A stretch of 64,000 nucleotides of DNA from Escherichia coli (lineage in GTDB: Bacteria > Pseudomonadota > Gammaproteobacteria > Enterobacterales > Enterobacteriaceae): assembly GCF_048403405.1 (NCBI RefSeq), contig NZ_CP183129.1, one strand, 5' to 3'. The notes beneath the pieces are model-generated. The model was given only the letters and a program-made list of their open reading frames with translations, was not told the origin of the DNA and searched no databases. The stretch's first letter is position 1. Each line of letters opens with the position of its first letter. This document shows, piece after piece, positions 1 through 43,476 of this stretch. The translations under genes and the position numbers were made by a program.

Positions 1-526
1 CATTTGGCACCGTGCCGTTACGAATACGGCGCATAAAACGGGCATCACGCAAGCGCAGCACCGGCATTAAACGCACCAGATGGCGTGCCTGATCGTTAAT
101 ATCCTCGACATCAATCGGATGTCCGTCTTTATCGAGAAAACTGCGCAGTGTCATCACGCTGCCGTCTTCCGCACTCTCCCCTTCCAGACGATAAAAAATA
201 CGGTGATAGCCATCGGTGCATGGCATCCAGCACGCTTCCAGCGGCCGATAGCGGCGAACCCGATGTCGGCCTGGCAGCGATTCGCGGAAGGTCAAAATAA
301 TATGCAGATGATGTTCCCGACCGTTGATATCTCCCGGCGGGAACCAGAAATCGTCGCGCTCAAAATGGTAGAGATCTGATTCTGGCGATAGCAGCAGAGT
401 TAAGGCGTCCAGCAAGCTGGATTTACCCCACGCGTTCTCCCCAATCAGGACGTTGTTTTGTTCCAGCATCAATGACAAACGATTGATACCGCGAAAACCC
501 ACAATTTCAACGCGCTCAAGAATCAT
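1..526 (-). CDS. ybjD: OLD-family ATP-dependent endonuclease-like protein YbjD (DUF2813), N-terminal part; gene continues beyond the window start
   Basis: Reverse-strand translation from ATG at 524-526 reads MILERVEIVGFRGIN... with a Walker-A-like GENAWGKSS; GGAGGGG Shine-Dalgarno just upstream; runs off the window edge so it is absent from the ORF track. Confidence 0.8.
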   Translation of the reverse strand, partial: MILERVEIVGFRGINRLSLMLEQNNVLIGENAWGKSSLLDALTLLLSPESDLYHFERDDFWFPPGDINGREHHLHIILTFRESLPGRHRVRRYRPLEACWMPCTDGYHRIFYRLEGESAEDGSVMTLRSFLDKDGHPIDVEDINDQARHLVRLMPVLRLRDARFMRRIRNGTVPN

Positions 527-951
527 ATCCCCTCCAGAAATATGTGACTTATCCTTTACGCTGGCAGTATAACGGGAAAGGCCATGCTAATACGTGATGA
601 CATCACATTTAAGCATGGCAAATGTCTGAAAAATGAGCGAATAATCGCGTTATACTCCCTCTTGCTGATAAGCCTGCAAAAACAACAAAATCAAATAATT
701 AGCATGATAAATTATTTTTTATTACGCCTAAAGGATTAAATCTTTCGCTTGCACTACACTGTCAATCAGACAAATGACTATATGGGGCAACCCGCTGTTG
801 CCCTAAATCAAATTTACTGGATTTATTTATCTGGCGAATGATTTGCCTTCGTTTTTAAAATAGCCGCGCATTATTTCCGTCGTCACTTTTTTACGACGAC
901 CCTATAAAACGACCATATTTTTCACAGGGTCAATTTTTAATTGAGGTGGAT

Positions 952-1647
952 ATGTTCAGAAAATTAGCAGCTGAATGTTTTGGTACTTTCTGGCTTGTTT
1001 TTGGTGGCTGTGGTAGTGCCGTACTGGCCGCAGGCTTCCCGGAATTAGGCATTGGTTTTGCCGGCGTGGCGCTGGCATTCGGTCTGACCGTTCTGACGAT
1101 GGCCTTTGCTGTTGGTCATATTTCTGGTGGTCATTTTAACCCGGCGGTCACTATTGGTTTATGGGCTGGCGGACGTTTCCCGGCAAAAGAAGTCGTTGGC
1201 TACGTAATTGCCCAGGTTGTCGGCGGTATTGTTGCGGCGGCGCTGCTGTATTTAATTGCCAGTGGTAAAACGGGTTTTGACGCGGCAGCCAGCGGTTTTG
1301 CTTCTAACGGTTATGGCGAGCATTCGCCAGGCGGTTATTCCATGCTTTCCGCACTGGTAGTTGAACTGGTATTGAGTGCAGGTTTCCTGCTGGTGATCCA
1401 CGGCGCAACCGACAAATACGCTCCGGCAGGTTTTGCACCGATCGCTATTGGTCTGGCCTTAACCCTGATTCACTTAATCAGTATTCCGGTGACTAACACT
1501 TCTGTTAACCCGGCGCGCAGCACCGCGGTTGCTATCTTCCAGGGCGGCTGGGCATTAGAACAACTGTGGTTCTTCTGGGTGGTGCCAATTGTCGGCGGTA
1601 TTATCGGTGGTCTGATTTACCGGACTCTACTGGAAAAGCGTAATTAA
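952..1647 (+). CDS. aqpZ: aquaporin Z (water channel, MIP family)
   Basis: Translation [19 protein letters not shown]... contains both NPA motifs (HFNPAVT, NPARS); 231 aa from ATG 952 with GAGG RBS; track ORF 946 starts at an upstream GTG. Confidence 0.95.
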
Positions 1648-1657
1648 TTAACGCAGA

Positions 1658-1686
1658 AGGCCTGGCGCAATGTCAGGCCTTTTTTA
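1658..1686 (+). terminator. rho-independent terminator of aqpZ
   Basis: Hairpin aggcctg / caggcct followed by ttttt, 10 nt after the aqpZ stop. Confidence 0.7.
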
Positions 1687-1740
1687 AATATATTGATTCA
1701 TCTTCCTGTTGCGCTCCTTGATGTGTTAAGCCACATATAG

Positions 1741-1935
1741 TCACTGGCGCAGGGAGCGCGCAGGGGGCGGCCAATCGCCGCCGCCCCCTGCACCCCCAGG
1801 CTCTGGCGAACAAAATCGCCGCTGCGCGGTGCCCTCGACTTATCCCTTACGGCTACCGGGTCGGGCGCGAGGTAACATCCCTGTAAAACGCGCCCTCAGC
1901 CCACATCCATGTGGGCTGCCCCGGCCTTCAGGGAA
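1741..1935. repeat. cluster of GC-rich extragenic palindromic units (REP/BIME-like family not assignable)
   Basis: Perfect 10-bp inverted repeats cagggggcgg/ccgccccctg (1771-1800) and cagcccacat/atgtgggctg (1898-1919) plus further GC-rich dyads in a non-coding aqpZ-lysO spacer. Confidence 0.4.
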
Positions 1936-2130
1936 CGCCTCGGCGATTTTGACGCCACCAACACCGGTGCGGTTTGTAATTAAAGCGCAAGAATATCTTT
2001 AAATGAAAATGAATACCCTACCGATCCTTATGCATAACATTTCCTTTTAATTGCAACTTTACTCGCCCTTCCGCTTTCAGTAGTGTGTCATCGCGCATTT
2101 CGACTTCATCTTTGCAAGGACTGGGTTTTC

Positions 2131-3030
2131 ATGTTTTCTGGGCTGTTAATCATTCTGGTTCCCCTGATTGTGGGTTACCTCATTCCTCTTCGCCAAAAAG
2201 CTGCATTAAGAGTTATTAATCAGCTATTAAGCTGGATGGTTTACCTTATTCTCTTTTTTATGGGTATCAGTCTGGCGTTTCTCGATAACCTCGCCAGTAA
2301 CCTGTTGGCGATTCTGCATTATTCTGCCGTCAGTATTACCGTTATTTTACTGTGTAATATTGCCGCCCTTATGTGGCTGGAGCGAGGCCTGCCATGGCGC
2401 AATCACCATCAGCAAGAAAAACTCCCGTCGCGTATTGCGATGGCGCTGGAGTCGCTAAAACTGTGCGGCGTAGTAGTGATTGGTTTTGCCATTGGCCTGA
2501 GTGGACTGGCTTTCTTACAACATGCGACCGAAGCCAGTGAATACACCTTAATTCTGCTACTTTTCCTCGTCGGTATTCAGTTGCGCAATAATGGCATGAC
2601 CTTAAAGCAGATTGTCCTTAATCGCCGGGGAATGATTGTCGCCGTGGTGGTGGTTGCCAGTTCATTAATTGGTGGTTTAATTAACGCCTTTATTCTTGAT
2701 CTTCCCATCAATACCGCGCTGGCAATGGCCTCTGGTTTCGGCTGGTATTCTCTTTCCGGTATTTTATTGACTGAATCTTTTGGTCCGGTAATCGGGAGCG
2801 CGGCGTTTTTTAATGATTTGGCCCGTGAGCTGATTGCTATTATGTTGATCCCCGGGCTGATTCGCCGCAGCCGCTCTACTGCACTGGGCTTATGCGGTGC
2901 CACATCAATGGATTTCACCCTGCCCGTTCTTCAACGTACTGGCGGGCTGGATATGGTCCCGGCGGCGATTGTTCACGGTTTTATTCTTAGTCTGTTAGTG
3001 CCGATCCTCATCGCCTTTTTCTCTGCATAA
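2131..3030 (+). CDS. lysO: lysine exporter LysO (YbjE)
   Basis: Track ORF 2083-3030; product from internal ATG 2131 (MFSGLLIILVPLIVGY...) is 299 aa, a multi-pass membrane protein matching YbjE/LysO. Confidence 0.85.
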   Translation: MFSGLLIILVPLIVGYLIPLRQKAALRVINQLLSWMVYLILFFMGISLAFLDNLASNLLAILHYSAVSITVILLCNIAALMWLERGLPWRNHHQQEKLPSRIAMALESLKLCGVVVIGFAIGLSGLAFLQHATEASEYTLILLLFLVGIQLRNNGMTLKQIVLNRRGMIVAVVVVASSLIGGLINAFILDLPINTALAMASGFGWYSLSGILLTESFGPVIGSAAFFNDLARELIAIMLIPGLIRRSRSTALGLCGATSMDFTLPVLQRTGGLDMVPAAIVHGFILSLLVPILIAFFSA

Positions 3031-31197: not shown

Positions 31198-31276
31198 GCC
31201 ACTGCTTTTCTTTGATGTCCCCATTTTGTGGAGCCCATCAACCCCGCCATTTCGGTTCAAGGTTGGTGGGTTTTTT
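31198..31276 (+). ncRNA. rybB: RybB small RNA (sigma-E-dependent, Hfq-binding)
   Basis: 79-nt sequence gccactgcttttctttgatgtccccattttgtggagcccatcaaccccgccatttcggttcaaggttggtgggtttttt matches RybB as I recall it, with intrinsic terminator (ccaacc/ggttgg + U6); lies between ybjL and rcdA as in E. coli. Confidence 0.9.
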
Positions 31277-31295
31277 GTTATCTAAAATTTATCTA

Positions 31296-42770: not shown

Positions 42771-43157
42771 ATGGGTGTGTATAAGGCAAGACGATTCAGC
42801 CAAAGCACGAAAAAACTTGGTATTCACGATAAAGTTCTCATGGCTGCCGCTGAAGAAGTGATGCAGGGCATATGGGAGGCTGATTTAGGTAGCGGTGTCA
42901 TCAAAAAACGTTTACCCCTCCAACAAGGAAAGAGTGGTGGAGCCAGAACAATTATCTTTTTTAAATCAGCAAATCATGTGTTTTTTTATGATGGTTGGTC
43001 CAAGAGTGGTCTAAGCAGTAAAGGAACCAAAGAAATCGAAGATGATGAACTGGCGGCCTACAAAAAAATGGCAAATGCATTTCTGGCCTTTAGCAATAAG
43101 CAAATAGAGGATTTGATCGAAACTGGCTTTTTGATTGAGGTGAAAAATGAGCGATAA
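42771..43157 (+). CDS. putative type II toxin, RelE/ParE superfamily (HigB-like; toxin-first operon)
   Basis: 128-aa basic protein MGVYKARRFSQSTKKLGIHDKVL...GKSGGARTIIFF...; AAGGA RBS; overlaps downstream HTH gene by 11 nt. Confidence 0.65.
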   Translation: MGVYKARRFSQSTKKLGIHDKVLMAAAEEVMQGIWEADLGSGVIKKRLPLQQGKSGGARTIIFFKSANHVFFYDGWSKSGLSSKGTKEIEDDELAAYKKMANAFLAFSNKQIEDLIETGFLIEVKNER

Positions 43158-43476
43158 ATTACAAATGATGCTGGAAGATGCAAAGGAACTGAATGCACTG
43201 GGCCTGATGTCTGATAGTGAAGTTGATGCCATTGCCGTCATGGTCAAAGCTCGTGAAGTCAGCGCCCGTATAGCCAAAGTCAAATCAATGACGGGTGAAG
43301 AGATCAAAGCCATCCGCACCCGATACGGCATGTCACAATCCGTGCTGGCACATACAATGGGAATGTCAAAAGAAAGTGTCTCGAAATGGGAACGTAATGA
43401 AATAAAACCGAGCGGCCCGGCATTACGTATTTTGAATACATTGGCAATAAAAGGGCCGGAAGTTTTTGCAAAGTAA
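43147..43476 (+). CDS. putative antitoxin with C-terminal XRE-family HTH (HigA-like)
   Basis: 109-aa protein; C-terminal GMSQSVLAHTMGMSKESVSKWERNEIKPSGPALRILNTL is a typical Cro/C1-type HTH; translationally coupled to the upstream toxin-like gene. Confidence 0.65.
   Translation: MSDKLQMMLEDAKELNALGLMSDSEVDAIAVMVKAREVSARIAKVKSMTGEEIKAIRTRYGMSQSVLAHTMGMSKESVSKWERNEIKPSGPALRILNTLAIKGPEVFAK

Follow-up and report, generated by a model that had tools for sequence, protein, structure and literature searches.

The ybjD locus at the window edge

The window, by which we mean the whole 64,000-nucleotide stretch of Escherichia coli DNA analysed here, opens on its minus strand with the 5' part of ybjD, separated by a divergent intergenic region from aqpZ (Table 1). 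Translation of the minus strand from position 526 to position 2 yields 175 sense codons without a stop, the peptide beginning MILERVEIVGFRGINRLSLMLEQNNVLIGENAWGKSSLLDAL; the reading frame is still open at window position 1, so that the edge truncates the gene and leaves its remaining 377 codons past that position. The 175 residues make up the N-terminal lobe of an ABC-type ATPase domain and, taken by themselves, match the Pfam families DUF2813 (E=4.9e-76) and AAA_15 (9e-10), as well as AAA_29, AAA_21 and SMC_N. As judged from the sequence, chance is excluded as the source of these family matches. The cloning primer published for ybjD corresponds to the start codon and the first 29 bases found here (PMC13261556). 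The initial annotation had recognized a truncated YbjD N-terminus on the reverse strand, a Walker A motif (GENAWGKSS) and conservation of the gene in E. coli: the first is confirmed to the base by the open ATG frame, the second lies at residues 29-37, and the third agrees with the occurrence of the full-length gene in 5424 of 5426 complete genomes. We put at roughly 93% the probability that ybjD (b0876; oldB has been proposed as its name) begins on the minus strand of positions 1-526 and encodes a chromosomal, stand-alone Class 1 OLD-family ATPase-nuclease.

Positions 1-1000 of the window are matched in 5424 of 5426 complete E. coli genomes, in which the gene is annotated as ybjD, "ATP-dependent endonuclease", beside aqpZ. 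Nucleotide identity over this interval reaches 100% in a minority of strains (TUM14771, GN02461, 4621 and MS 69-1, for example), and the present ybjD allele is 96-99% identical in nucleotide sequence to that of most E. coli. Strain 4621 (NZ_CP103479.1) is collinear with the window over its full 64 kb, at 99.98% identity, and the record of that strain (L001) therefore supplies the sequence past the window edge, including the complete gene. A consensus scan of positions 1-1000 returned no sigma-70-like site, where 2.2 were expected by chance. Four terminator-like hairpins in the same interval look like chance occurrences and were set aside; three fall within the coding part of ybjD and the fourth between ybjD and aqpZ. 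An Rfam scan of the whole window placed no retron or other RNA near ybjD.

Table 1. Features of the ybjD locus and other parts of the window. Coordinates are window positions unless a record is named.
Feature	Position	Strand	Basis or remark
5' part of ybjD (oldB), codons 1-175 and one base	1-526	minus	translation; Pfam DUF2813 E=4.9e-76; RefSeq annotation in a 100%-identical strain
ybjD start codon ATG	526-524	minus	
Ribosome-binding site GGAGGGG (535-529) and ATG (526-524) of ybjD	524-535	minus	sequence; same start in RefSeq and published primer
Walker A / P-loop GENAWGKSS, residues 29-37	416-442	minus	direct reading of sequence and translation
Codon of Walker A lysine K35	424-422	minus	
Divergent ybjD-aqpZ intergenic region, presumed (putative) site of both promoters	527-951		annotation transferred from L001
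aqpZ CDS	952-1647	plus	annotation transferred from L001 (collinear strain)
Full-length ybjD, 552 codons	L001:10868-12526	minus	strain 4621 record
ybjD/ybjX overlap, 4 bp, E. coli	L001:10868-10871		outside the window
ybjD/ybjX overlap, 4 bp, Salmonella	L008:9656-9659		
600-aa ORF between ybjQ and ybjP	12606-14408	minus	pentapeptide-repeat region
Accessory region	12400-14900		
RybB sRNA	31201-31279	plus	full-length Rfam match, 104 bits
Toxin-antitoxin pair between rimO and dgcI	42771-43157 and 43147-43476	plus, plus	
LacI-family regulator	~62393-63553	minus	

Domain layout of YbjD and its likeness to characterised OLD proteins

The complete YbjD protein of 552 residues comprises, by Pfam, a DUF2813 ABC-type ATPase at 1-375 (2e-160) followed by an OLD-like_TOPRIM domain (PF20469) at 376-440 (3.8e-16), with AAA_15, AAA_21 and SMC_N also matching the N-terminus. 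The best PADLOC models are GajA (PDLC00094, 3e-80) and Old (2e-24); NCBIfam offers no equivalog for YbjD, its P-loop matches (MADS3, RecF, PtuA, Eco8) all being sub-threshold. An AlphaFold2 model built on the alignment described below (mean pLDDT 88.9, pTM 0.88) places four helices, 177-195, 202-220, 241-255 and 259-277, between the ATPase strands, with lower pLDDT there (45-88); in the model this helical insert, ~177-277, occupies the place of the dimerisation domain of the OLD protein of Thermus scotoductus (Ts OLD).

Relatives were collected by an all-against-library HMMER search, which returned 1988 proteins at E<=1e-3 and 334 at E<=1e-30, and YbjD was aligned with 68 full-length relatives of 28-53% identity (alignment A1), so that column counts are out of 69 sequences (Table 2). 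Mean column conservation is highest in the Toprim core (378-445, 0.73), as compared with 0.54-0.55 in the ATPase lobes and 0.31 in the middle insert. The residues of the Toprim domain fit a complete two-metal site, with E385/D438/D440 at metal A and E389/D472/E474 at metal B. In YbjD the position of the basic residue found in Class 1 proteins at +7 from the metal-B glutamate (R487 in Ts OLD, K550 in P2 Old) is taken by G481, an invariant glycine. Among the lysines downstream only K513 is invariant, 39 residues past the metal-B glutamate and at the start of a predicted helix; we put it forward as a candidate catalytic lysine in place of the +7 residue, one that recalls K562 of Class 2, which comes from the C-terminal helical domain (PMC7049728). 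Giant relatives of 1188-1867 residues also occur in the representative library (P0149, P0162, P0165 and P0173). They combine the DUF2813 ATPase and OLD-like Toprim seen in YbjD with long stretches inserted into the ATPase and with a large C-terminal extension for which Pfam gives no strong match.

Table 2. Motif residues of YbjD, their counterparts in Ts OLD (profile alignment) and P2 Old (hhalign), and their conservation in alignment A1. The codons of E293, H300 and N323 fall outside the window.
YbjD	Motif	Ts OLD	P2 Old	Conservation
G29	Walker A			68/69
E30	Walker A			69/69
G34	Walker A			68/69
K35	Walker A lysine	K34	K37	K 62, R 6 of 69
E293	Walker B acid	E276	D299	62/69
H300	D-loop	H283	H306	68/69
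N323	H-loop position	H310	H332	N 41, H 12, Q 10 of 69
E385	metal A	E377	E398	69/69
E389	metal B	D381	E402	68/69
D438	metal A	D431	D453	68/69
D440	metal A	D433	D455	69/69
D472	metal B			68/69
E474	metal B			69/69
K513-P514	candidate catalytic lysine, past metal-B motif			69/69

Compared with solved structures, the family profile matched Ts OLD best (Class 1; 6p74, 8.5e-22) and GajA next (1.2e-19), with further matches to PtuA, retron ATPases, the retron Eco8 OLD, Rad50/SMC/RecN/RecF and the Class 2 C-terminal regions 6nk8 and 6njv; the C-terminal region of Bp OLD was matched at 1.8e-5. The profile was needed for this purpose, a single-sequence phmmer search of YbjD against the PDB giving weak matches only (7e-5). 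Foldseek comparison of the YbjD model with the PDB returned GajA (1.6e-19, TM ~0.57), Ts OLD (2.8e-17) and retron Eco8 OLD (8.6e-14), and hhalign joined the YbjD family to P2 Old with 98% probability (E=1.8e-13) over residues 1-447, the motifs being in register. The initial annotation had proposed comparison with GajA and the OLD classes and had made its reading depend on a Toprim domain with intact catalytic residues; the three methods return Ts OLD, GajA and P2 Old, in support of the OLD-family assignment, and OLD-like_TOPRIM is found at 376-440 with all the catalytic acidic residues in place. In an earlier study YbjD (b0876) served as the query that defined the OLD classes, E. coli being listed under Class 1 (Schiltz et al. 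2019, PMC6755086).

The resemblance to Ts OLD (PDB 6P74) extends to the order of ATPase, predicted helical insert and Toprim, and to the Walker B glutamate, the D-loop histidine, metal A (E/DxD) and the first metal-B acid at +4; the Ts OLD residues aligned in Table 2 drive ATP hydrolysis and two-metal cleavage, as established by mutation (PMC7049728). On the other hand, the two proteins share only ~16% identity; the H-loop residue is His in Ts OLD and Asn in YbjD, Asn being frequent at this position among Class 1 OLD proteins (PMC7049728); metal B is S-x-E in the former and D-x-E in the latter; R487 at +7 faces an invariant Gly; and YbjD, unlike Ts OLD, has ~75 extra, mostly helical residues past the metal-B motif. 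P2 Old, the founding member of the family, is likewise encoded by a stand-alone gene, and its ATPase motifs and Toprim E / E+4 / DxD align with those of YbjD. Identity by tblastn is 27.8% over residues 252-440 only, while the C-terminal parts do not align by hhalign, and overall identity is given as 18% (PMC6755086). The two differ in setting and behaviour: P2 Old is an accessory protein carried by prophages, which kills recBC cells and depends on its nuclease residues (PMC7049728), whereas YbjD is core and chromosomal, fails to kill recBC(ts) cells and has a phenotype independent of its Toprim (PMC13261556). GajA (Gabija, Class 2 OLD; PDB 8JQ9, 8SM3, 8U7I) shares the domain order and provides the top Foldseek matches, and ATP binding has been proposed to restrain activity in both proteins (PMC13261556).

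By analogy with Ts OLD, Bp OLD and GajA, YbjD would dimerise through its helical insert, and its Toprim site would nick or cleave nucleic acid with Mg2+/Ca2+; nucleotide binding at the ATPase head, on the pattern of the solved relatives, would regulate this activity and not power it. Cleavage in vitro is unaffected in ATPase mutants of Ts OLD (PMC7049728), and ATP inhibits cleavage by GajA according to work cited in PMC13261556. The identity and enzymology of YbjD we regard as almost certainly settled, with nuclease and ATPase activities that are predicted from its homologs.

Neighbourhood, distribution and selection

In strain 4621, ybjD is divergent from aqpZ across a 425-bp spacer and convergent with ybjX, beyond which follow macA-macB, cspD and clpS-clpA. 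The product of ybjX is a VirK/DUF535 protein and no helicase. In both E. coli and Salmonella the coding regions of the convergent pair share 4 bp (Table 1), and in Yersinia 136 bp separate them; PMC12288877 places ybjD-ybjX among convergent "excludons". The same arrangement is found in the most divergent E. coli genome recovered, in Salmonella (without aqpZ) and in Yersinia, with aqpZ or lysO as the divergent neighbour across these three taxa, and in a Serratia record ybjX also lies under the match. A LysO-family exporter gene is divergent from the ybjD homolog from E. coli, Salmonella and Yersinia through to a Pasteurellaceae genome (Necropsobacter, L013 4005-7715, compared with window 1-3030), a pairing that may be mere synteny; downstream of the Necropsobacter homolog is a gene for a Pol IV (dinB)-like polymerase.

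Farther afield the surroundings change, and the gene is found amid unrelated housekeeping genes. One distant relative lies between ribH-nusB-thiL-pgpA and dxs-ispA-xseB, and another near spoT; the homolog adjoins a 5'-nucleotidase gene in Vibrio, lysO and dinB in a Pasteurellaceae genome, and a GST gene in Chitinilyticum. Five contexts in other Gamma- and Betaproteobacteria have no neighbour in common, and in all 10 contexts inspected no UvrD-like helicase, reverse transcriptase, AriB-like gene or recurrent partner stands beside ybjD, which by the context definition therefore belongs with the Class 1, stand-alone OLD genes (PMC6755086). A RecQ gene in one context (L005) was rejected as a partner, being 2.5 kb away, with three genes on both strands intervening, and not recurrent. 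The SGI1-island genes also called "ybjD" (S024, beside the uvrD-like S023) are different genes, Class 2 Gabija-type relatives named by homology.

These contexts bear directly on a possible Gabija-like (Class 2) or other multi-gene arrangement, in which ybjD would be one component and its partner would be encoded just past the window edge. Several likenesses point in that direction: the strongest PADLOC matches carry the GajA label, GajA stands above Ts OLD in the Foldseek ranking, and the invariant K513, with its distance from the metal-B glutamate and its predicted helix, is reminiscent of the Class 2 lysine. GajA acts together with an adjacent helicase, GajB, in a 4:4 complex, whereas ybjD is without an adjacent helicase in any of the 10 contexts. 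In Class 2 systems the helicase gene gajB is adjacent and usually overlapping; the downstream gene here is the convergent ybjX, which in the collinear strain is followed by macA and macB, so that adjacency of a partner is refuted and a multi-gene system is very improbable. The suggestion of relevant partners in the upstream neighbourhood is likewise not borne out, because no helicase, reverse transcriptase or recurrent partner appears there; the sequence past the edge carries ybjX, macAB, cspD and clpSA, and no defence partner. The gene is core and lies outside any defence island.

The stand-alone gene is also distributed as a core gene would be. Of 5426 complete E. coli genomes, 5424 carry full-length ybjD at 96-100% nucleotide identity, with a median of one place per genome and a highest count of 2. 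The gene is that of E. coli K-12, with an identical start, a length of 552 residues and aqpZ and ybjX alongside, and it departs from it as an allele only. The protein encoded here is 99% identical within the 90%-identity cluster (P0001) that it shares with K-12 YbjD, and only 4 residues are changed in the most divergent complete genome (96.0% nucleotide identity). Protein identity is 89-91% in Salmonella and Citrobacter, 86% in Klebsiella, 65% in Yersinia, 64% in Serratia and 56% in Proteus, and, where ranges or paired values reflect MAFFT and HMMER, 43-45% in Tatumella, 40% (41% by HMMER) in Vibrio, 41-42% in a Pasteurellaceae genome and 38-39% in Chitinilyticum. Estimated by the Nei-Gojobori method, dN/dS comes to 0.018 within E. 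coli, to 0.036 when Salmonella is the comparison, and to 0.027-0.034 for the Toprim half, and the motif residues are unchanged in these comparisons.

Carriage of YbjD-type genes by plasmids or phages was considered and rejected on the database matches. Among those listed, the "plasmid" matches of at least 99% identity are records of 0.7-4.9 Mb, or carry the chromosomal neighbour ybjX, and are therefore read as misfiled chromosomal sequence. The 50,697 phage records contain no YbjD-type gene. What they do return is P2 Old, a single faecal phage contig, uncharacterised, at 26% identity, and an unannotated 2-kb record in which the first 98 codons of ybjD are matched at 91% identity. The accessory, patchy, island-borne or mobile distribution typical of defence systems is thus absent from E. 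coli, where one locus accounts for 5424 of the 5426 genomes, and ybjD has the profile of a core gene passed on vertically, unlike that of a mobile defence gene.

Native role of YbjD, and other features of the window

The gene has been characterised by Atahualpa et al. (2026), who proposed the name oldB (PMC13261556). Their report, which contains no YbjD biochemistry, establishes that ybjD is expressed and non-essential, describes no growth or repair phenotype, and finds the susceptibility of the Keio knockout to 68 BASEL phages unchanged. Arabinose-induced YbjD reduced the plaquing of Bas18 and Bas20 and the plaque size of Bas64-68; residues 1-377 were enough for this effect and 378-552 alone were not, while K35A retained it with higher toxicity (PMC13261556). 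Toxicity was independent of RecBC, and a recBC(ts) strain was not killed, unlike the outcome with P2 Old (PMC13261556). A table of genes up-regulated by a cathelicidin peptide lists ybjD with a value of 1.3. The identity, class and first phenotype of ybjD are accordingly already known, and there is nothing new in the fragment itself; what is added here is the core single-copy status, the synteny as far as Yersinia, the dN/dS of ~0.02-0.04, and the recognition of the Toprim as the most conserved part of the protein.

These observations can be set against the view, suggested by family precedent, that the native role is dedicated anti-phage defence, with YbjD working by itself as an effector of abortive infection or exclusion, in the way of P2 Old or the OLD protein of Vibrio cholerae (Vc OLD). 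YbjD would then be silent or low until triggered, its ATPase half serving as both sensor and toxic effector. Defence is documented in the family for P2 Old, Vc OLD, GajA and the retron Eco8 OLD, the best PADLOC models are those of GajA and Old, and plaquing is reduced upon overexpression. That effect, however, was seen only upon arabinose induction, the knockout leaving all 68 phages unaffected (PMC13261556), and the Toprim, the most conserved domain, is irrelevant to it. The gene occupies one fixed locus, syntenic in Salmonella and Yersinia and set in housekeeping surroundings elsewhere; it shows no sign of the diversification of an arms race, and it is absent from the phage records. Dedicated defence is therefore possible but, in our estimation, doubtful.

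An alternative view assigns to YbjD a cellular nucleic-acid transaction, such as repair, the handling of replication or recombination intermediates, or RNA processing, in the manner of Cran1 or of Rad50/RecF-like relatives, and regards the phage phenotype as a side effect of overexpressing a nucleic-acid-binding ATPase head. It is in keeping with a core, single-copy, vertically inherited gene whose identity tracks phylogeny, with strong purifying selection that includes the Toprim, and with a Toprim core conserved well above the rest of the protein (0.73 versus 0.31-0.55). A precedent for an OLD protein outside defence is the archaeal Cran1, an OLD-family ATPase with a cell-cycle role, described in PMC12796447, which, like YbjD, is lineage-conserved and not obviously devoted to defence; Cran1, however, is essential in Saccharolobus, whereas ybjD is dispensable in E. 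coli (PMC13261556). The want of any described growth or repair phenotype for this non-essential gene (PMC13261556) and the failure of any conserved neighbour to point to a pathway weigh on the other side. A cellular role of this kind is quite plausible, if still somewhat short of an even chance, and YbjD may also serve in both.

That the native role may not be phage defence is argued by the Toprim itself, which is the most conserved part of the protein yet dispensable for the phage phenotype obtained by overexpression. Given a core gene that keeps its synteny, is strongly constrained by purifying selection and is best conserved in its Toprim, we consider dedicated phage defence no more probable than a constitutive function in the cell for which the nuclease is used. 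More specifically, YbjD/DUF2813 might tentatively be viewed as a vertically inherited core OLD branch of the Gamma- and Betaproteobacteria whose Toprim serves DNA or RNA maintenance, a bacterial counterpart of Cran1 in which the phage phenotype is a side effect of overexpressing the ATPase half; we hold this as a minority expectation. The proposed nuclease step has no phenotype attached to it, because the Toprim is not needed for the sole phenotype known (PMC13261556). Essentially every E. coli genome encodes an OLD-family nuclease with an intact Toprim, while the only phenotype found needs neither the Toprim nor native expression, and this mismatch between conservation and dispensability suggests a native function yet to be discovered.

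Several other features of the window may be recorded. An intact ORF of 600 residues with a pentapeptide-repeat region lies between ybjQ and ybjP (Table 1); its Pfam match to Pentapeptide_4 (2.6e-8) is under the gathering score, and its copy in strain 4621 is flagged in RefSeq as a partial pseudogene. The surrounding region is accessory: of 5426 complete E. coli genomes, only 1122, O157:H7 among them, have at least 80% of it. The sRNA RybB, far from ybjD, is the sole Rfam family to reach the gathering score within the window. Between rimO and dgcI is a toxin-antitoxin pair composed of a RelE-family toxin (PF06296, 6.9e-33) and an HTH_3/MqsA-like antitoxin, the two genes overlapping by 11 bp. 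Near the far end, between ybiU and ybiT, lies a gene for a LacI-family regulator; in the collinear strain those for an MFS transporter and a GH31 glycoside hydrolase come next, past the window end, and the insertion looks like a small sugar-utilisation cluster.
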